NCBI GenBank assembly: GCA_000175855.1
Contig: ACYB01000035.1
Coordinates: 494,795 to 526,794 of the forward strand
Reading direction: 5' to 3'
Source: Raphidiopsis brookii D9
GTDB lineage: Bacteria > Cyanobacteriota > Cyanobacteriia > Cyanobacteriales > Nostocaceae
Length of the DNA stretch: 32,000 bases
Shown: positions 23,398 to 32,000 of the stretch, piece after piece
Layout: every line of letters begins with the position of its first letter
Position numbering within the stretch: the first letter of the stretch is position 1
Translations under genes and position numbers: made by a program
The notes under the pieces: model-generated
Database searches by the model: none
What the model was told of the DNA's origin: nothing
The model's input: the letters and a program-made list of their open reading frames with translations, nothing else

Positions 23398-23553
23398 AGA
23401 TGGACTGTTTACTAAATTTGACCTATCAAGTTGTAGCTCCAACCAGAACTCTATAAACAGAGTTCATGGCTAAAAATGAGATTTGGGTAGGCGATCGCCT
23501 ACCCTCCTTATAGGTAGCTACCGCTATTAATTGACATGTCAAACTTATATTAA

Positions 23554-23925
23554 TCATTTAATCTCACAAGTTAAAGGACAAGAAGCATAAACGGTAGTTT
23601 GCAACCTTTCCGCATCACCATATAGCCAACTTAACCACTTAACTTCTTTGGGATGAACACTCTTAGCAGTCAAGACACCCGCCACGATTAAAACTGACAT
23701 AACATTGAAAATTACTAAAGCACCTGCTACGAGTAAAACAGCGCTCGCAGGCATAACAGATTGCAAAACAATAGAGAGTAAGCAACCTACTGTAGCCATA
23801 ACTACAACTAGTGGAAAACCTACTACTAACAAGCACACTGCTAATGTGAAAGTCCAAATTAAAAAGCTTTTCATCATTAACAAGGAGTACATCTTCCCTT
23901 GATTAGAGCTTTGAGCCACAACCAT
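23554..23925 (-). CDS. Hypothetical small membrane protein (3 predicted TM helices)
   Basis: 123-aa ORF. AGGAGG lies about 8 nt upstream of the ATG at 23925. Three long hydrophobic stretches. No recognisable family. Confidence 0.6.
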   Translation of the reverse strand: MVVAQSSNQGKMYSLLMMKSFLIWTFTLAVCLLVVGFPLVVVMATVGCLLSIVLQSVMPASAVLLVAGALVIFNVMSVLIVAGVLTAKSVHPKEVKWLSWLYGDAERLQTTVYASCPLTCEIK

Positions 23926-24369
23926 GATCTTTCCTCCTAAAATTACACAGCAAGGTTTAAAGTTGAATTTCAGTTTTGCTCAATTCTTGAGATCACTGTT
24001 TTCATTCAGTGAAATTCAGTATATAGAACCTGAAGAAAAAGATGAGCATTTCTTTATTAATCTTTACACTTAATCTTTCGTAATCATGAATTTGATGCCC
24101 AAATCGGATTTGGTTCACTACTCCCAATTCCCCATATATCCCTAGATATATAACTTTGTGAATAGCAATCTCCATGAATCTTACCCAAAATCCGTCTCCT
24201 AACTCGCTTAATATTTCTTAACAAAAGTCTCCTTGTCTCTCATAATTGAAATGGGAAATAAAAGGCTAGTAGTGACCTATAATCCAGATAACGCGGTTCC
24301 ACAAAAATAAATGCTCTGCATTGACAGTGACCAGTGTTAACAACAAACAACAGGTATTAACTAAATTTA

Positions 24370-25146
24370 ATGAGTGTTTATAACTTAGGTACAAATATAG
24401 ATAAACCATCTTTACCTCAAGTGTTTAAAGGGATTGCCTTGTTTACACCTGGGGGAGATTTAATTTACTGTATTGATCCGAGTAAACAGAAGCGATGGCA
24501 TTTGCATTTGTGTGGGGTCTTGCAGGAAATACTGAATCTATCAGAACCTCCCCATTTTCTGGTTCCTTGTTATACAGCCACAATTGATCATTGGTTAAAT
24601 CCACGTACACAAAAAATACAGACATTTGCGGAGGCTTATCCTGCGGTAATGAGCTATCAGCCAGTATTGGGAGCAATTTTTGGGACAGGAAATGAGGTGT
24701 GGCAAAGGTCACCTTGGCGAGAGGATGTATGTGATCTCATGGTAATAGAGAGTTATCGTTCAACCTTTCCCGAATTATGGGAGGATCACGATTTGATCGT
24801 GCGTTTAGATAGCATGTCCATGCCATATTCACAGAAGCATGTCAATCAAAAACAGATAATACAGAATCATGAAGTTTATGTTTTACGTTTATTTGTTGCT
24901 GGTCATAACATGTCCACTGAAAGAATTTTAGAGAAACTACATGAATTATTAGAAGATTACTTAGGGGTTCCTTACACTCTCAAGGTAATTGATGTTTTAA
25001 CACATCCGGAGCAAGCGGAAATAGATCAGGTTTCAGCCACACCCACATTAGTTAAGATTTGGCCCCATCCTGTTCGTAGGATAGTTGGTGATTTGGATAA
25101 TGTGGAAAAGGTGTTACACACCCTGGGTAAAAAAGATAATTTTTAG
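24370..25146 (+). CDS. Elongated KaiB-domain protein (unknown ~160-aa N-terminal domain + C-terminal KaiB/thioredoxin-like fold)
   Basis: The C-terminal ~95 aa, VYVLRLFVAGHNMSTERILEKLHELLEDYLGVPYTLKVIDVLTHPEQAEIDQVSATPTLVKIWPHPVRRIVGDLDNVEKVL, aligns by eye along the whole of canonical KaiB (LKLYVAG...ALKVIDVL..P.LAE.D.I.ATPTL.K..P.PVRRIIGDLS..EKVL). Confidence 0.8.
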   Translation: MSVYNLGTNIDKPSLPQVFKGIALFTPGGDLIYCIDPSKQKRWHLHLCGVLQEILNLSEPPHFLVPCYTATIDHWLNPRTQKIQTFAEAYPAVMSYQPVLGAIFGTGNEVWQRSPWREDVCDLMVIESYRSTFPELWEDHDLIVRLDSMSMPYSQKHVNQKQIIQNHEVYVLRLFVAGHNMSTERILEKLHELLEDYLGVPYTLKVIDVLTHPEQAEIDQVSATPTLVKIWPHPVRRIVGDLDNVEKVLHTLGKKDNF

Positions 25147-25233
25147 GAGTGGGAAATCAATCCTTGGCGAATAAGTATTATAATGTGTGAGTGATATAAA
25201 GATCCTAACCTATTTAAACCTACAGTGGAAAGT

Positions 25234-26010
25234 ATGTATTTTACCTGGCTTGACAGTAACAGTTGGCTATTAGAAATTGGGGGGTGGCGTATTCTTTTAG
25301 ATCCCTGGTTGGTAGGAGATTTAACCTTTAATAATGTAGATTGGCTATTCAAAAGTTATCGCCTGCAGGATCGCCCCATACCAAACAATATAGACTTAAT
25401 TTTGTTGTCTCAAGGTTTGGAAGATCATGCTCATCCACCGACTCTTAAACAGTTAGACAGACATATACCTGTTCTGGGTTCTCCTCAAGCAGCTAAGGTG
25501 GTAGAAAAATTGGGATATCATCAAGTGAAGAGTCTCCATCATGGTGAGAGTTTCACCTTAGAGGATACTTTAAATAACAATTTAAAAGACCAACTAGAAA
25601 TTAAAGCCCTTCCTGGCTCTCCTGTAGGACCCAATGTGAGAGAAAATGGTTACGTGATCCGAAATATATCTAATAAAATGAGCTTATACTATGAACCACA
25701 TGGTTATCATTCATCCGCACTTGAAGAATTGAGTCCAGTAGATGTAGTTATCACACCTATAATTAACTTATCCTTGCCTCTCTTAGGTCCAGTAATTAAA
25801 GGTATGAATAGTGCTTTGGAAGTTGCCAAATTGTTAAAACCCCAAATTATGCTCCCCACTGCTGCTGGTGGAGATGTGTTCTTTGATGGGATATTAAGTA
25901 AAGTATTACAAGCACAGGGGAATGTGGCAGAATTTAAAGAGTTATTAGAAGTAAATAGTTTATCTACACAGGTAATTGAACCTAAACCTGGGGAGAGGAT
26001 TTCCGTTTAG
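25234..26010 (+). CDS. MBL-fold metallo-hydrolase
   Basis: WLLEIGGWRILLDPWLVG followed by LSQGLEDHAHPPTL (a degenerate HxHxDH-region) is typical of the beta-lactamase-fold hydrolase family. The ORF-track start at 25225 is a GTG; the first ATG is 25234. Confidence 0.7.
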   Translation: MYFTWLDSNSWLLEIGGWRILLDPWLVGDLTFNNVDWLFKSYRLQDRPIPNNIDLILLSQGLEDHAHPPTLKQLDRHIPVLGSPQAAKVVEKLGYHQVKSLHHGESFTLEDTLNNNLKDQLEIKALPGSPVGPNVRENGYVIRNISNKMSLYYEPHGYHSSALEELSPVDVVITPIINLSLPLLGPVIKGMNSALEVAKLLKPQIMLPTAAGGDVFFDGILSKVLQAQGNVAEFKELLEVNSLSTQVIEPKPGERISV

Positions 26011-26036
26011 GAAGATGGCGAATGGTAGTATGAGAT

Positions 26037-27683
26037 ATGGACTGGATTAATTTATTGAGATCCCTACAGTCAGATTTTATTAAAAGATTAAATTCTGGTT
26101 GTTTATTAAATTGTGAAATACCAGGAAGTCATAGTGAATTAACAATTATTTCCGGACAAAGACTGAAATCTCTCAGGGAATTTTGCTGGTCCATGGCGGA
26201 AAAGTATAAGCGTAGCTCTACGGTACGCGATGTGTTTGTTAGTAATCTTAAAGGTAAATTAGGCGAAGAAGTCGTTAAAGAACGATTGGCAGATTTTATC
26301 ACTGAGGTTGATTATGAAAAGCGTTTAGGTGGGGATGGTAAAAGTGATTTTACTGTCACTGCACATCCTTGGATTGGGATAGAAGTTAAATCTCGTCATG
26401 GGGATTTTGATAAGGTAAGATGGTCTGTGAGTTCCCAAGAGGTAGGAAAAAATGCCGTTATTGTTTGTATTTTAATTCGGGAGGAGGTGACAGAAGCTCA
26501 ATTAGCATATCATCTTTTTTTAGCTGGGTTTCTCCCCACAAAAATGATTAAGTTAAAAACTGGCAGAATTTCGTTTGGTATTGATCAGTTATTATATGGT
26601 GGAGGTTTATTACCATATTTAGAAGATTTACCAGCCATGATTAGTAATGGCATTTCTCAGAAAGCAATTTCATCTAATACAAGCGGTTTATACAACTCAC
26701 ATAATTTATACAATTTACAAAAGCACGCGCCAGATATGGGGGGAGATATAGTAGAGTTTTATGTGAAATTGGGGGATAAACATTTTGATCATGGTGACTA
26801 TATTGTGGCAATTAGTAATTATAGTCAAGCATTACAAAACAATAAAAAAAACAGTTATTACCAAGAGGAACTCCGATCTGAACTTAATCTCAGCCATAAA
26901 TATGCTGATAATATTAGTAATATTGATATTCATGCCTATTATAAACTTGGTTTAGCCTATTATCAATTAGGCGATTATGACATGGCAATTTCCAACTATA
27001 ACCAGGTAATCAATGCCAATGTAAATCATAGCAATGCTTATAATAAAAGAGGTTTAGCCCATTATAAGTCACGTAATTATCACAGCGCCATAGAAGATTT
27101 TAGCCAGGCAATTTCTATCAACCCCGAATTAGCAATTAACTACAAAAATCGAGCCGAAGCTCGTTATTTAATAGGAGATTATCAAGGAGCAATAGAAGAC
27201 TATAGTCAAGTACTTAGTATTCATCCCGATTTGTTAGATCAGCCAATATTGGTAGGAGATATAGGAGAATTATTTAACATCAAATGCCATGATGAAGTTA
27301 TTTATAAAAATCGAGCCGATCATCTCTATCAGCTAGGAGAATATGAAGAAGCAGTAGAAAACTATAATCAGGCGATCGCTCTAAATATTAACTATGTGGA
27401 TGCCTATTATCAACGAGGTAAAATATATTTTAATAGGGGAATATATGAAGCAGCGGTGGATGATTTTAGCATGGTTATCAAAACTCAACCCAATTATGGT
27501 GATGCATATTATTATAGAGGGAACTGCTGGTTAATTATGGGAAATAAACAGACAGCAAGTGGAGATTTTAAAAAGGCGGCGGATATATATTGGCAAGATG
27601 GTAGGTTAGCAGAATACAAACAAACCCAAGCCATGATTTTAGAGGTGGAAATTGAACAATCCCTGGATATTCTAGATTTCTGA
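26037..27683 (+). CDS. Fusion protein: N-terminal PD-(D/E)xK nuclease-like domain + C-terminal TPR repeat array
   Basis: 548 aa. N-terminal part has GKLGEEVVKERL (E77/E78), GKSD104F and IGIE116VK118SR, the E...D...ExK layout of the restriction-endonuclease-like fold. From ~aa 235 there are at least 7 TPR-like units (AYYKLGLAYYQLGDYDMAISNYNQVI, AYNKRGLAHYKSRNYHSAIEDFSQAI, ...). Confidence 0.7.
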   Translation: MDWINLLRSLQSDFIKRLNSGCLLNCEIPGSHSELTIISGQRLKSLREFCWSMAEKYKRSSTVRDVFVSNLKGKLGEEVVKERLADFITEVDYEKRLGGDGKSDFTVTAHPWIGIEVKSRHGDFDKVRWSVSSQEVGKNAVIVCILIREEVTEAQLAYHLFLAGFLPTKMIKLKTGRISFGIDQLLYGGGLLPYLEDLPAMISNGISQKAISSNTSGLYNSHNLYNLQKHAPDMGGDIVEFYVKLGDKHFDHGDYIVAISNYSQALQNNKKNSYYQEELRSELNLSHKYADNISNIDIHAYYKLGLAYYQLGDYDMAISNYNQVINANVNHSNAYNKRGLAHYKSRNYHSAIEDFSQAISINPELAINYKNRAEARYLIGDYQGAIEDYSQVLSIHPDLLDQPILVGDIGELFNIKCHDEVIYKNRADHLYQLGEYEEAVENYNQAIALNINYVDAYYQRGKIYFNRGIYEAAVDDFSMVIKTQPNYGDAYYYRGNCWLIMGNKQTASGDFKKAADIYWQDGRLAEYKQTQAMILEVEIEQSLDILDF

Positions 27684-27883: not shown

Positions 27884-28966
27884 TTAACCGTTGATTGCGG
27901 GTGCAGTTAATGCTACAGGAGCTACCTCACCAGCTGCTAAATCCAAGGGGAAGTTGTGAGCATTGCGCTCGTGCATTACTTCCATACCCAGGTTAGCGCG
28001 GTTGATTACATCCGCCCAGGTTCCGATTACACGACCTTGAGAATCAATGATGGATTGGTTGAAGTTGAATCCATTCAGGTTGAATGCCATGGTGCTTACA
28101 CCCAGTGCTGTAAACCAGATTCCTACTACTGGCCATGCAGCCAAGAAGAAGTGTAGTGAACGGCTGTTGTTGAATGAAGCATATTGGAATATCAAGCGAC
28201 CGAAGTAACCGTGTGCTGCTACGATGTTATAGGTTTCTTCCTCTTGTCCGAACTTGTAACCATAGTTTTGAGACTCGGTTTCGGTTGTTTCTCTGACTAA
28301 GGAGGAGGTTACCAAGGAACCGTGCATAGCGCTGAACAAGCTACCACCGAATACACCTGCTACACCCAACATGTGGAAGGGGTGCATCAGAATGTTATGT
28401 TCTGCTTGGAACACAATCATGAAGTTGAAGGTGCCAGAGATACCTAAAGGCATACCATCGGAGAAGGAACCTTGTCCAATGGGGTAGATTAGGAATACTG
28501 CGGTAGCAGCTGCCAAAGGTGCTGAGAAAGCTACGCAAATCCAAGGGCGCATACCTAAACGGAAGGAGAGTTCCCATTCACGACCTAGGTAGCAGGCTAC
28601 ACCAATCAAGAAGTGGAAGATTACTAGTTGGTAAGGACCACCATTGTATAACCATTCATCTAAGGAAGCAGCTTCCCAAATTGGGTAGAAGTGCAAACCA
28701 ATAGCGTTAGAAGAGGGAACAACTGCACCGGAGATGATGTTGTTACCATACATTAAGGAACCAGCAACGGGTTCACGGATACCATCGATATCAACTGGGG
28801 GAGCAGCGATAAAAGCGATGATGAAGCAAGTAGTAGCTGCGAGTAGGGTGGGGATCATTAACACACCAAACCAGCCAATATAGAGGCGGTTGTTGGTGCT
28901 GGTGATGAATTCGCAGAAGCGGTCCCAGATGTTAGCACTCTGGCGCTGTTGAATGGCGGTGGTCAT
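27884..28966 (-). CDS. psbA: Photosystem II reaction centre protein D1 (Glu130 / D1:2-like form)
   Basis: 360 aa. [42 protein letters not shown] ... [13 protein letters not shown] plus a C-terminal extension. Counting from Met1, residue 130 is Glu (YLGRE130WELS). Confidence 0.97.
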
Positions 28967-29034
28967 GGTTTTATAATTGCGGTTTTATCAGAGGTTTATG
29001 TATGTTCCGGTAGGTGTTTCTACCTTATGAACTT

Positions 29035-29063
29035 ATATTAAGACAAATGTTTAGATTTGTAAA
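29035..29063 (-). promoter_or_regulatory. psbA promoter (-35 TTTACA / 17 nt / -10 TAATAT)
   Basis: Reverse strand reads TTTACA (29063-29058), a 17-nt spacer, then TAATAT (29040-29035), about 70 nt upstream of the psbA ATG. The -35 lies in a palindrome TTGTAAA-gagttt-TTTACAA. Confidence 0.6.
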
Positions 29064-29148
29064 GAGTTTTTTACAAAATTTTTAATAAATTTGCCAATTA
29101 GGGATTTTGCTATATGTGGTAGGGGTTTCCGGCTATGGGAGGGTAGGC

Positions 29149-29224
29149 GTGAGTTTTTAAAAAGGGCGATCGCTCATATGGAGTACTTCGCGATCGCATT
29201 TGACCAAGGTAGGAATGCGATCGC
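29149..29224. repeat. Right copy of the psbA-bracketing direct repeat, within a cluster of three HIP1 sites
   Basis: GTGAGTTTTTAAAAAGgGCGATCGC (29149-29173), then HIP1 sites at 29190-29197 and 29217-29224. The left copy looks like this one with the 24 nt between the first two HIP1 sites deleted. Confidence 0.75.
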
Positions 29225-29766
29225 CTTTTATAAAGGGTCTTTCTCGCTGAGGTATTGGAAAAACCAAATAAAATTAGTAGGAATAGGAATGTTATAAACA
29301 ATGATATTCTTTGAAAGAATATGTATTTACTGAAAGTTTAACTTTTATGAGTATATCTGAAACCAGAAGTGTTGAATGTTAAGAAATCTGTGATAAAAAT
29401 AGCCCAAAATATATTAAAATTTGAGCAAGCTATATCAAAATATAGATTTGATCATGATTATAAATTCATTTCCCATTTATGCCAGTCTCATCGCTTATCT
29501 AATTTTACAACTTGTATCTGTTCGTCAAGAATGGGGTAATAAAATGTTAGATAAATTCCGCTATCTTCAAGCTTGTATGTGTCAACAAATTAGTTATGTT
29601 CATTGGATGGAAGATATCATGAGATGTTGACATTTTCACCCTTAATAGGACTACTATAACTGAATATGTAAACTTTTGTAACGACATTCAACATTTCTGG
29701 AAAAATATGATATAATTCATACAAATTATTAATCAATAAGCTTGATCATTAAAATTAAAATGGTTT

Positions 29767-30786
29767 ATGACAATGGTTCAAAAAATCGCCTTATTTAATC
29801 ATAAAGGTGGTGTGAGCAAAACCACTACTACATTTAACTTAGGTTGGATGCTTGCTGAAAAAGGGAAAAGAGTAATTCTGGTAGATACTGATCCCCAATG
29901 TAATCTTACAGGTATGGCATTAAAAGAAGAAACAGAAGAAGATGAAGCCAGAATAGAAAACATTTATCAAAATTCTTCTAATATTAAAACTGGTTTAGCT
30001 CCTGCTTTTGAATCTCAACCAAGAGCTATTCAAGCAGTAGATTGTATTCCCATAGAAGGACAAGAAGGACTATTTTTATTACCTGGCCATGTTGGTTTTG
30101 CTGAATATGAAGTAACGTTAGGTATTGCACAAGAACTGAGTGGTTCAATTCATGCACTAAAAAATTTACCAGGCGCAATTTCTGATCTTTTAGAAAAGAC
30201 AGCTAATAAATTTAATGCTGACTACATTTTAATTGATATGAGTCCCAGTTTAGGAGCAATCAATCAAAATTTATTAATGATTAGTGATTTTTTCTTAGTA
30301 CCTACAACTGCTGATTTCTTTTCAGTAATGGCCATAGATTCTTTAGCTAGAATATTACCAAAATGGTGTGGTTGGGCAAAGAAAGCAAGTATAAATCCTA
30401 TATTAAAAGAAGCTACCTATCCATTTCCAGAGTTTAGGTTGAAATTTTTAGGAACTATAGTGCAAAACTATAGAATTATTAGAGGTAAAGAAACCAGAGC
30501 ATTTCAAACTTGGATAGAAAAAATAGAAAAGACAGTTACTACTAAACTAAAACCTATTTTGGAAATAAATAACTTATTATTACCTAATCAAACATATGCT
30601 GAACAGAACATGAATAGTAGTTTCACTGTGACTAAAATTTCTAACTTTAATAGTTTAATCGCTCTATCACAAAAACATTGTACACCAGTGTACGCACTTA
30701 CACCTGAACAATTAGATCAGGAAGGTATAGTATTAAAAATAATCAAAAAAAACAAGAAGAATTTAGAGAAACTTTTTCCGATTTAG
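29767..30786 (+). CDS. ParA/MinD-superfamily ATPase (deviant Walker A), orphan: no ParB partner
   Basis: 339 aa. KIALFNHKGGVSKTTTTFNLG (deviant Walker A KGGxxK[ST]), VILVDTDPQCNLT (A' motif), ILIDMSPSLG (Walker B). Very AT-rich coding sequence. The annotated 3' end may be truncated by a frame problem at an A8 run (see findings). Confidence 0.85.
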   Translation: MTMVQKIALFNHKGGVSKTTTTFNLGWMLAEKGKRVILVDTDPQCNLTGMALKEETEEDEARIENIYQNSSNIKTGLAPAFESQPRAIQAVDCIPIEGQEGLFLLPGHVGFAEYEVTLGIAQELSGSIHALKNLPGAISDLLEKTANKFNADYILIDMSPSLGAINQNLLMISDFFLVPTTADFFSVMAIDSLARILPKWCGWAKKASINPILKEATYPFPEFRLKFLGTIVQNYRIIRGKETRAFQTWIEKIEKTVTTKLKPILEINNLLLPNQTYAEQNMNSSFTVTKISNFNSLIALSQKHCTPVYALTPEQLDQEGIVLKIIKKNKKNLEKLFPI

Positions 30787-30816
30787 CAGATAAAATTATT
30801 TCCTTATCATCTACTT

Positions 30817-31578
30817 ATGCAGTCAGCAATTGAGCAATTTCGTATTAGTGCTCAGCGTGTTAGAGATTTAATTTCTCTTCATAATTCTCTGAAATCTCAA
30901 GCTACTGCTGCTTTAGATTTATCCGATATATTAAGAGCAGCTTTAGTTCTCATTGTCAGCGCATTAGATTACTATATTCATGAAGTTGTTACATTGGGGA
31001 TGCTGGAAATTCATCGAGGAATACGTCCTGAACCAGTAAATCCTCAAAATTCTGAATCAGCTTTTGGAAAGTTTAAAGTTCCTTTGGGAAGTGCTAGTGA
31101 AGATAGAACAACAGCTATAAATATTTCCTCTTGGATAGAGGGTGAAATACAGCAAAGTTATGGAGATGTCTTTTTGGAAGGTACTCATAATATTTCTAGT
31201 TTAATTCCTGTTATTTGCAATGCTATTGTGGATAAACTAAATAATAGTTCATGGTTAGAAAATGAAATTAGAAAAGAGTTCAGTAAACTAAGTTTTCAAA
31301 TACCAGATAACATTGCTGATGCAATTAGGTACATATCAAATAAAAAATTATGGGAAGAGGTTACTAATAAAATGAGAGGAAATACTACACAGGAATCTCA
31401 AAAAAGTATCAAACAACAATTAAGAGAAATTGTAAAACGCAGAAATCAAATTGCCCATGAAGCAGATATAGATCCTAGTTTTGGTTTAGGAAATCGCTGG
31501 CCTATAGATGAATTAATGGTTAATGATGCAGTAGATTTTATTGAGGAGGTTGTTGAGAGTATTCATCAAATTTTATAG
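30817..31578 (+). CDS. HEPN-like protein (putative RNase) with C-terminal Rx4H motif
   Basis: 253 aa, mostly helical by eye. N-terminal helix ILRAALVLIVSALDYYIHEVV. Near the C-terminus, LREIVKRRNQIAHEADID contains R209-N-Q-I-A-H214 (31441-31458), the Rx4-6H signature of the HEPN superfamily. Starts 31 nt after the ParA-like stop on the same strand. Confidence 0.6.
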   Translation: MQSAIEQFRISAQRVRDLISLHNSLKSQATAALDLSDILRAALVLIVSALDYYIHEVVTLGMLEIHRGIRPEPVNPQNSESAFGKFKVPLGSASEDRTTAINISSWIEGEIQQSYGDVFLEGTHNISSLIPVICNAIVDKLNNSSWLENEIRKEFSKLSFQIPDNIADAIRYISNKKLWEEVTNKMRGNTTQESQKSIKQQLREIVKRRNQIAHEADIDPSFGLGNRWPIDELMVNDAVDFIEEVVESIHQIL

Positions 31579-31625
31579 CTGACGGGGTGACAAACAAGGC
31601 TGAAAACAAGACGGTATAAAGAACG

Positions 31626-31730
31626 TAACGATTTATGGTAAAAAAGATAGGTCAGCTATTGTCAATAAGACCTATCTAACGATTTATGGTAAAAAAGATA
31701 GGTCAGCTATTGTCAATAAGACCTATCTAA
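31626..31730. repeat. Tandem duplication, 2.06 x 51 bp, each unit containing an 8-bp-stem hairpin
   Basis: TAACGATTTATGGTAAAAAAGATAGGTCAGCTATTGTCAATAAGACCTATC occurs at 31626-31676 and again, identically, at 31677-31727. GATAGGTC ... GACCTATC are inverted repeats (31646-31676 and 31697-31727). Confidence 0.9.
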
Positions 31731-32000
31731 TGAAAATGTTACCCTTATTCTATCAAAAGCACTTAAAAAGTCAATTGAGTTTAGCAGAATATCTGTTCCT
31801 CAAAATTTTGGTGAACATCTTACAGTCAATTAAAAATGTGAATTTAGAAAGGTTAGCGAATGGCGTACCGTTACCAATTAAATTTGAAAGTAGAAGAAAA
31901 AGAATACAAAGATTTTTATCATTACCAAATCTAACAATTGAAAAAATTTGGTTTCCCATTATTCAGGAATGGTTATCAATATATTTTACCAATGAAAAAA
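31730..32000 (+). mobile_element. 5' part of an IS4-like (DDE) transposase gene, running off the right edge
   Basis: Open frame from ATG 31730/31736 to the window end: (MK)MLPLFYQKHLKSQLSLAEYLFLKILVNILQSIKNVNLERLANGVPLPIKFESRRKRIQRFLSLPNLTIEKIWFPIIQEWL... The LA..xPxPIxFESRR+xxQRFL / WFP pattern is the N-terminus I associate with cyanobacterial IS4-family transposases. Family assignment is tentative. Confidence 0.6.

Follow-up and report, generated by a model that had tools for sequence, protein, structure and literature searches.

A 32,000-nt stretch of the Raphidiopsis brookii D9 genome (contig ACYB01000035.1; the whole stretch is hereafter called the window) was found to carry, near its 3' end, a two-gene cassette in which the gene of a ParA/Soj-type ATPase (gene 1) is followed by the gene of a HEPN-family predicted RNase (gene 2). 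The window copy is a slightly damaged instance of a dyad already known from computational work, and its function is a prediction. What the analysis demonstrates for this dyad is the identity of both domains, the invariance of catalytic-type residues, a strict association of the genes, purifying selection, and the occurrence of copies on mobile elements. The interpretation favored here, at a probability of roughly 0.45, is that of an RNase effector restrained by the ParA-type ATPase, for element addiction and/or abortive-infection defense.

The two open reading frames (ORFs) of a preceding sequence-only reading, which was made by a model from the letters of the window, were recovered at the same positions (Table 1). 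They are co-directional, and the gap between them is 30 nt rather than the 31 nt first given. Gene 1 had been taken for a ParA/MinD-type ATPase, and its motifs could be read directly: a deviant Walker A (KGGVSKTT, K13-T20, with lysines K13 and K18), an A' motif (DTDPQ, residues 40-44), and a Walker B motif (ILIDMSP, residues 154-160). Matches to the Pfam families AAA_31 (108.9 bits, cut-off 27) and CbiA (57.1 bits, cut-off 25.4) place the protein in the same ParA/MinD class, and the Walker A block NHKGGVSKTTT was identical in 65 of 78 loci. The structure was approached through an AlphaFold2 (AF2) model of an intact homologue of 99% identity (P0271; pLDDT 87), which was compared with the PDB by Foldseek. 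The best matches were Soj (2bek; E 4e-13, TM normalized to target 0.75) and DIP2308 (3pg5; TMq 0.63, the highest query coverage), and the pNOB8 ParA-DNA structure was also among the matches. As judged from this model, gene 1 encodes a genuine ParA/Soj-fold protein. Homologues of the ATPase are 350-356 amino acids in length, and the family is larger by approximately 100 residues, which lie in insertions and in a C-terminal helix, with 355 amino acids compared to about 250-265 in typical ParA/MinD proteins. The C-termini of the homologues share a conserved tail (...NQKKQEEFxxTFSDLADKIIALSSSYAVSA), which forms a long C-terminal helix in the model (residues 320-349).

It is this tail that is out of frame in the window. 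A frame problem had been suspected from the letters and placed in a run of eight adenines; the problem is real, but the A8 run (30745-30752) was rejected as its site, being the same in the window and in a 99.2% identical metagenome copy of the cassette (L081), whose ATPase gene is intact (355 amino acids). DNA alignment revealed instead that the window is without one A at 30735-30739, with A5 where L081 has A6. About 32 residues, among them those of the conserved C-terminal helix, are replaced by 16 unrelated ones through the 1-nt deletion, and the ATPase gene is not full-length in-frame. The alternative frame of the window encodes the conserved tail QEEFRETFSDLADKIISLSSTYAVSN up to a stop codon at 30831-30833, which recreates a 17-nt overlap with gene 2; an overlap upon repair of the frame had likewise been expected. 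Either the ATPase allele of the window is damaged, or a sequencing error in the homopolymer at 30735-30739 gave rise to the apparent frameshift. With the C-terminal helix lost through the deletion, the cassette may be impaired.

Gene 2, which had been described as HEPN-like on account of an Rx4H signature (R209-NQIA-H214), matched the Pfam family PF18735 (HEPN_RiboL-PSP) with 58.7 bits (cut-off 28.4). Its score against PF18737, the MAE_28990/MAE_18760-like HEPN family, was 23.4 and under the cut-off of 26.8. Among 80 gene 2 relatives, PF18735 matched 78 (E<=0.001) and PF18737 also matched 10; some homologues are named 'MAE_28990/MAE_18760 family' by NCBI, and no informative match for gene 2 was found in NCBIfam. 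In the alignment of 80 sequences, which span 31-79% identity, the residues R40, S48, D51, H55, R209, H214, and D217 were invariant, and R208 and N210 were conserved in at least 90%. Four of these (R40, S48, D51, and H55) lie in the N-terminal helix, in agreement with the earlier impression of a conserved helix in this position. When only the 76 full-length sequences from genome loci were considered, R209 was conserved in 99% and H214 in 97%. The AF2 model of the protein was all-helical (pLDDT 92.9). A PDB profile search with the HEPN alignment gave only non-significant matches, the top two of which were to ApeA (E 0.27-0.37) and aligned at the motif region. No match to ParB, helix-turn-helix (HTH), or ribbon-helix-helix (RHH) families of Pfam or NCBIfam was found above threshold, and hits to Myb and ARID were sub-threshold only. 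By sequence, gene 2 encodes a member of the HEPN family whose Rx4H motif is invariant, and it is a predicted RNase.

Close relatives of gene 2 number more than 1,100, all of about 249-254 amino acids and nearly all cyanobacterial. A further 885 metagenomic relatives (representatives of 50%-identity clusters) were identified, most of which are of about 200 amino acids and are without an insert of about 48 residues (residues ~93-140) that gene 2 carries.

The linkage of the two genes was surveyed in 80 genome loci that a search with the HEPN protein had retrieved, which included Nostocales, Oscillatoriales, Chroococcales, Leptolyngbya, Prochlorothrix, Trichodesmium, Microcystis, and Arthrospira. 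The ATPase gene was directly 5' of the HEPN gene in 78 of these loci. Of the two exceptions, one ends at a contig edge and the other, from a Stigonema metagenome-assembled genome (MAG; L048), has an intact HEPN gene and no ATPase gene. The sequence-only reading had proposed the conservation of R209/H214 and of the gene pair as a check, and both were found to be retained. The 17-nt overlap of the two genes was present in about 70 of the 78 loci, which implies translational coupling. Pairwise distances of the ATPase and HEPN proteins were correlated (r = 0.69, Mantel p = 0.001), and both genes were under purifying selection, with ratios of nonsynonymous to synonymous substitution (dN/dS) of 0.05-0.25. 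Across cyanobacterial orders, homologues of the pair are 63-90% identical. No third conserved gene was found when the neighborhoods of the genome loci were compared.

The pair also extends beyond the cyanobacterial genomes. Among distant metagenomic HEPN representatives (28-38% identity, tblastn), the ATPase was upstream in all six with enough upstream DNA, and it was directly upstream in 22 of 41 viral contigs (IMG/VR) that encode a HEPN relative. The dyad was identified in two Pf phage records, Pseudomonas phage WX-TY (L094, 2676-4308) and the Pf1-like prophage AY324828 (L095), where it sits at the variable or accessory end of the filamentous prophage, and on a conjugative plasmid of Burkholderia glumae (L093, NZ_CP021160; 12 plasmid records matched, of which one was inspected). 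These plasmid and Pf copies have the same motifs as the cyanobacterial ones, to which their ATPases are 36-38% identical near full length and their HEPN proteins 25%. HEPN relatives below about 27% identity had no ATPase partner (L116, 2773-6934; L114, L119, L122, and L133) and were located beside prophage integrases or, in a type I restriction-modification (R-M) operon, between the hsdM and hsdS genes.

The composition of the cassette differs from that of its surroundings. GC content in the module region is 31%, the extreme AT bias noted before, compared to 40-46% across most of the window, where it is already down to 33-39% from about 23 kb onward. Across the 78 loci, the dyad averages 5.5 percentage points lower GC than its flanks and is lower in 74. 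The window has no HIP1 site beyond 29224. The HIP1-free island that had been pointed out is present, but this 2.8-kb stretch is not statistically significant in the window alone, which includes a second HIP1 gap of 3.9 kb at 23498-27372. Over the 78 loci the depletion is highly significant, with 4 HIP1 sites observed in the dyad and 133 expected at flank density (P ~2e-51; ~33-fold depletion), and composition alone was estimated to explain only about two-fold of the drop. The AT-richness and the HIP1 depletion suggest that the cassette behaves as mobile DNA.

Comparison of individual copies provided further insights into its limits and contexts. Positions 29541-31578 of the window are 99.2% identical to positions 3123-5161 of L081, and the homology stops exactly at both ends. 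In L081 an ISL3 transposase gene lies upstream and IS630-type genes downstream, and these insertion sequences (ISs) differ from that of the window. The homology between the two ends exactly at the HEPN stop codon, which may reflect two different ISs at one spot or a movement of the cassette as a unit. In the comparison with further Nostocales loci (L001-L006), identity was limited to the two genes. In Crocosphaera two very different versions occur, with ATPases 76% and 52% identical to that of the window, and distant copies adjoin a type IIG R-M gene, a STAND ATPase gene, or conjugation genes. Additionally, a metagenomic contig (L090, 81-3791) has the dyad flanked by a full-length phosphoglucomutase gene on one side and by a 174-amino-acid PGM_PMM_III fragment on the other, an arrangement that looks like a cassette insertion into, or beside, a duplicated gene end. 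No tRNA was found near the cassette of the window as an integration site. By these sequence comparisons the dyad behaves like a self-contained, horizontally mobile two-gene unit of chromosomes, Pf prophages, Burkholderia plasmids, and viral contigs; GC content, HIP1 depletion, and carriage on mobile elements are in line with the captured cassette that had been suggested at the outset.

The pairing had been put forward as a novel candidate, along with the remark that comparative surveys may have linked HEPN families to ParA/Soj-like ATPases. The remark was accurate: the ParA/Soj-HEPN dyad was described by Anantharaman, Makarova, Burroughs, Koonin, and Aravind (2013; PMC3710099), who proposed the ATPase as an antitoxin and the HEPN protein as an RNase toxin, and the pairing is therefore not new. 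For the ATPase antitoxin, a nucleotide-dependent conformational change or phosphorylation was postulated (PMC3710099). The cassette shares with the published dyad a co-directional gene pair, a SIMIBI-class ParA/Soj ATPase in the place that MNT has in MNT-HEPN modules, and a HEPN protein with Rx4-6H (PMC3710099). In contrast, gene 2 is of the RiboL-PSP-HEPN type by Pfam, whereas the survey placed the ParA-linked HEPN proteins in the 'MAE_18760' family and characterized RiboL-PSP-HEPN as 'operon with ParB', possibly a difference of naming (PMC3710099). The dyad was also called 'less common' in the survey (PMC3710099), and its occurrence here throughout cyanobacteria and in Pf prophages, plasmids, and viral contigs is far wider.

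Among characterized systems, the type VII toxin-antitoxin pair HepT-MntA (HEPN-MNT) is similarly a two-gene mobile module, in which a HEPN RNase toxin is neutralized by an enzyme-type partner encoded upstream. That partner, however, is an MNT nucleotidyltransferase that AMPylates the toxin, and the HEPN protein is of the DUF86 family; identity with HepT-MntA was rejected, as the cassette instead pairs a HEPN protein of PF18735 with a ParA/Soj P-loop ATPase. The present data allow no inference on a chemistry of modification, and the lineages without Walker A lysines (below) argue for neutralization by binding. The AbiD/F-like and ApeA HEPN defense proteins are comparable in that the RRNxIAHE segment of gene 2 was the part aligned with the ApeA motif helix in the non-significant matches given above, and in that the relatives of gene 2 without an ATPase partner are found at the ends of prophages or within a type I R-M operon. 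These proteins act alone or via fused sensor domains, whereas the present clade always has a separate ParA-type partner. With ParABS (type I partition), Soj-Spo0J, McdAB, and MinDE, the cassette has in common the ATPase fold, the deviant Walker A with its signature lysine K13, and the ATPase-first two-gene layout, but its second gene does not encode a ParB, RHH, or McdB-type adaptor. The region 29000-29766 contains no repeat family, the sole multi-copy repeat being a 51-nt duplication inside the IS. A ParABS system was rejected because neither a ParB-type protein nor centromere repeats were found. In size (355 and 361 amino acids) and query coverage, the ATPase is closest to the uncharacterized Corynebacterium protein DIP2308. 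Additionally, Rfam detected no RNA in 28900-32000, a result that speaks against an antitoxin RNA from any known family.

The nearest counterparts outside the cyanobacteria are accessory genes of the P. aeruginosa Pf5 and Pf1-like prophages (Orf317, 'Soj-like'), which have the same gene order and the level of identity given above for the Pf copies. The locus tags PA14_49010-49030 presumably belong to these accessory genes. The Pf pair differs from that of the window in having the short HEPN version of about 200 amino acids, without the insert, and in AY324828 the HEPN ORF was left unannotated. The Pf5 genes have been listed as hypothetical or as 'ParA nucleotide-binding domain' proteins of unknown function (PMC3820363, PMC7379572).

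Natural variants of the pair offered clues to its function. In three loci a nonsense codon interrupts the HEPN gene beside an intact ATPase gene, a decay pattern expected of a costly effector. One or both Walker A lysines were lost in three Crocosphaera species (L035, L040, and L051), in Prochlorothrix (L074), and in an Oscillatoria MAG (L058), with degenerate sequences such as NYEFGLSQT, NHNGGDSTAL, and GGVSTTT. In these lineages the ATPase is still full-length and the neighboring HEPN motif is intact. For the Crocosphaera pairs, dN/dS was about 0.35 for the ATPase, compared to 0.05-0.1 elsewhere, and about 0.15 for the HEPN protein. The constraint on the Crocosphaera ATPase is weakened, yet real. 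The retention of the ATPase after loss of its Walker A lysines suggests a partner role independent of ATP, most simply binding.

HEPN RNases are active as dimers whose subunits jointly build the active site, whereas the dimers of ParA proteins are of the ATP-sandwich type. In the favored mechanism, the HEPN RNase would be the effector or toxin, and the Rx4H residues of two identical subunits would combine into one composite active site, as is the case for other HEPN enzymes. The dimerizing ParA/Soj-type ATPase, encoded upstream and translationally coupled to the RNase, would be made first, bind the RNase, and hold it inactive in an antitoxin-like manner. The most economical model would be a 2:2 complex, with the HEPN dyad masked or distorted by a dimer of the ATPase. 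Most lineages would add a nucleotide-dependent switch, such that the RNase is released when the ATPase is lost or when its nucleotide or partner state changes. Element loss, phage attack, and energy collapse are possible triggers. Once released, the RNase would cleave RNA and cause growth arrest, and the pay-off may be a stabilized carrier element and/or an abortive-infection-type defense. RNase activity, a physical interaction, the direction of control, and the nature of the trigger are all inferred.

Several observations weigh against this mechanism. The HEPN gene is apparently intact beside the damaged ATPase gene of the window and in L048, where the ATPase gene is missing, which is unexpected if the ATPase were an essential antidote. 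Profile and structure comparisons of gene 2 had both been proposed in the sequence-only reading; the former succeeded with PF18735, but the search with the gene 2 model did not confirm the HEPN fold. Most immediate neighbors of the dyad are housekeeping genes, synteny is stable within Nostoc, and both proteins are strongly conserved (the dN/dS range given above), a picture that resembles a resident gene pair more than a fast-evolving defense locus. In PADLOC-DB 2.0.0 the HEPN protein had no hits, and the ATPase matched PDC-M28B only over the P-loop (residues 4-59). Literature searches found no experimental study of the dyad and returned just the 2013 survey and papers that list the Pf5 genes as unknown. 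The immediate neighbors in cyanobacteria are mixed, with Uma2 nucleases (20 of 126), AbiL/OLD-like ATPases, and restriction enzymes besides the many housekeeping genes; no enrichment over background is claimed for them.

Some of the same observations would be accommodated by a defense cassette with the reverse direction of control, in which the ATPase detects, for example, foreign DNA or a phage protein and switches the HEPN RNase on. Loss of the ATPase would then be harmless, as the intact HEPN genes beside a frameshifted ATPase gene in the window and beside none in L048 would suggest. ParA ATP dimers bind DNA non-specifically, the pNOB8 ParA-DNA structure was among the fold matches, and an NTPase sensor with an effector is a common layout of defense systems. 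Carriage on prophages and plasmids fits this arrangement and the restrained RNase equally, and the loci that combine a HEPN nonsense codon with an intact ATPase gene are compatible with a costly effector in both cases. However, the ATPase-first order with a stop/start overlap is the usual arrangement of antitoxin and toxin, and the lineages that keep the pair without Walker A lysines are hard to square with an ATP-driven sensor. An activating ATPase is, on this evidence, unlikely, although it is the most serious competitor of the restrained RNase.

A domesticated housekeeping function in cyanobacteria, with the RNase processing or degrading particular cellular RNAs and the ATPase regulating or positioning it, would account for the strong purifying selection on both genes, for the identity retained across cyanobacterial orders, and for the mostly housekeeping neighbors with conserved synteny in Nostoc. 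It appears improbable in view of the AT-richness and 33-fold HIP1 depletion, which are consistent in every lineage, the existence of pseudogenized copies, and the two divergent versions in Crocosphaera. Near-identical IS-flanked copies in different contexts also argue against it, as do the copies of the dyad carried by Pf prophages, by plasmids of Burkholderia, and by viral contigs. DNA partition or cargo positioning, in which gene 2 would be a non-catalytic HEPN-like adaptor in place of ParB, is suggested by the ParA/Soj fold with intact ATPase motifs, by the plasmid and prophage copies, and by the annotation of the Pf1 ATPase in AY324828 as 'similar to Soj (ParA) in chromosome partitioning functions', but it is very hard to reconcile with a gene 2 without HTH, RHH, or ParB matches above threshold whose invariant residues are the catalytic-type Rx4H set, with the lack of iterated centromere-like repeats upstream of the ATPase gene, with the predominance of single chromosomal cassettes, and with the persistence of ATPase-dead lineages.

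A wider reading is put forward here as a doubtful extension. The dyad could represent an uncharacterized class of immune or addiction system that senses nucleotide or DNA state, in which a HEPN RNase is gated by a ParA-family ATPase, a kind of protein known otherwise from the positioning of cargo. It would be common in cyanobacteria and used by Pf prophages and plasmids against competing elements, and the ATPase-dead lineages would represent a shift from nucleotide-gated to purely stoichiometric control. If the predicted function of the pair is borne out, ParA-family ATPases would gain a role beyond spatial organization as enzyme-type toxin regulators, and a widespread, compact RNase-based conflict system would be added to the cyanobacteria, where few defense or toxin-antitoxin systems have been tested. 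The relevance to P. aeruginosa is direct, as Pf filamentous prophages, which have an influence on biofilm and virulence, carry the same pair in their accessory region. Candidate catalytic residues can now be named for the HEPN protein (R40, H55, R209, and H214) and for the ATPase (K13 and K18), and the natural ATPase-dead and HEPN-nonsense alleles are usable as controls.

Table 1. Features of the ATPase-HEPN cassette and its 3' boundary, in window coordinates.
Feature	Position	Strand	Basis or remark
ATPase-HEPN cassette, minimal unit (~2.04 kb)	29541-31578	+	Limits are those of the homology shared with L081
Leader, part of the cassette	29541..29766	+	99.2% identity to L081 starts exactly at 29541; flanks outside unrelated
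Promoter-like site TCAACA-17-TATAAT with TG, in leader	29688-29716	+	Consensus match only
ParA/Soj-type ATPase ORF as it stands, 339 aa (amino acids)	29767..30786	+	Frameshifted near 3' end; Pfam AAA_31 and CbiA
Walker A KGGVSKTT codons	29803-29826	+	Within ATPase ORF
Frameshift site, A5 run (A6 in 99% identical copy)	30735..30739	+	DNA alignment with L081, L002, and L006
Alternative frame coding the ATPase C-terminal helix (...NNQKKQEEFRETFSDLADKIISLSSTYAVSN)	30740..30833	+	TGA stop 30831-30833; 17-nt overlap with HEPN start
HEPN-family (RiboL-PSP-HEPN type) predicted RNase, 253 aa, looks intact	30817..31578	+	PF18735
HEPN motif codons R209 and H214	31441-31443 and 31456-31458	+	Read from sequence
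Left end of IS4-family insertion sequence, outside the module and its 3' boundary	31579..32000	+	Abuts HEPN stop codon

Promoter-like sites such as that in the leader were not more numerous in the region than in shuffled sequence when scanned. Upstream of the leader, in the spacer between psbA and the cassette, three HIP1 octamers occur inside 60 nt at 29166, 29190, and 29217 (region 29156-29234), and they are the final HIP1 sites ahead of the AT-rich block. The octamers at 29166 and 29217 form an 18-nt inverted repeat (TTTAAAAAGGGCGATCGC / GCGATCGCCTTTTATAAA).

On the other side, the IS neighbor that had been recognized from the letters is the IS4-family element, which from its first base (31579) is 92-93% identical to IS4 copies on Nostoc and Planktothrix plasmids. 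Just 5' of its transposase start (~31731), the element contains a perfect 51-nt tandem duplication (31626-31676 / 31677-31727). The related plasmid copies align over 373 nt of the 422-nt query and appear to be without this duplication.

Two proteins encoded further upstream in the window have long N-terminal regions without a Pfam match. The first, of 258 amino acids (24370-25146), has a KaiB domain only at residues 173-252, preceded by a long extension. The second, of 548 amino acids (26037-27683), carries TPR repeats in its C-terminal part, beginning at about residue 275, and its N-terminal region of about 250 amino acids shows by eye a D...E-V-K pattern (SDFTVTAHPWIGIEVKSR) that is reminiscent of PD-(D/E)xK nucleases.

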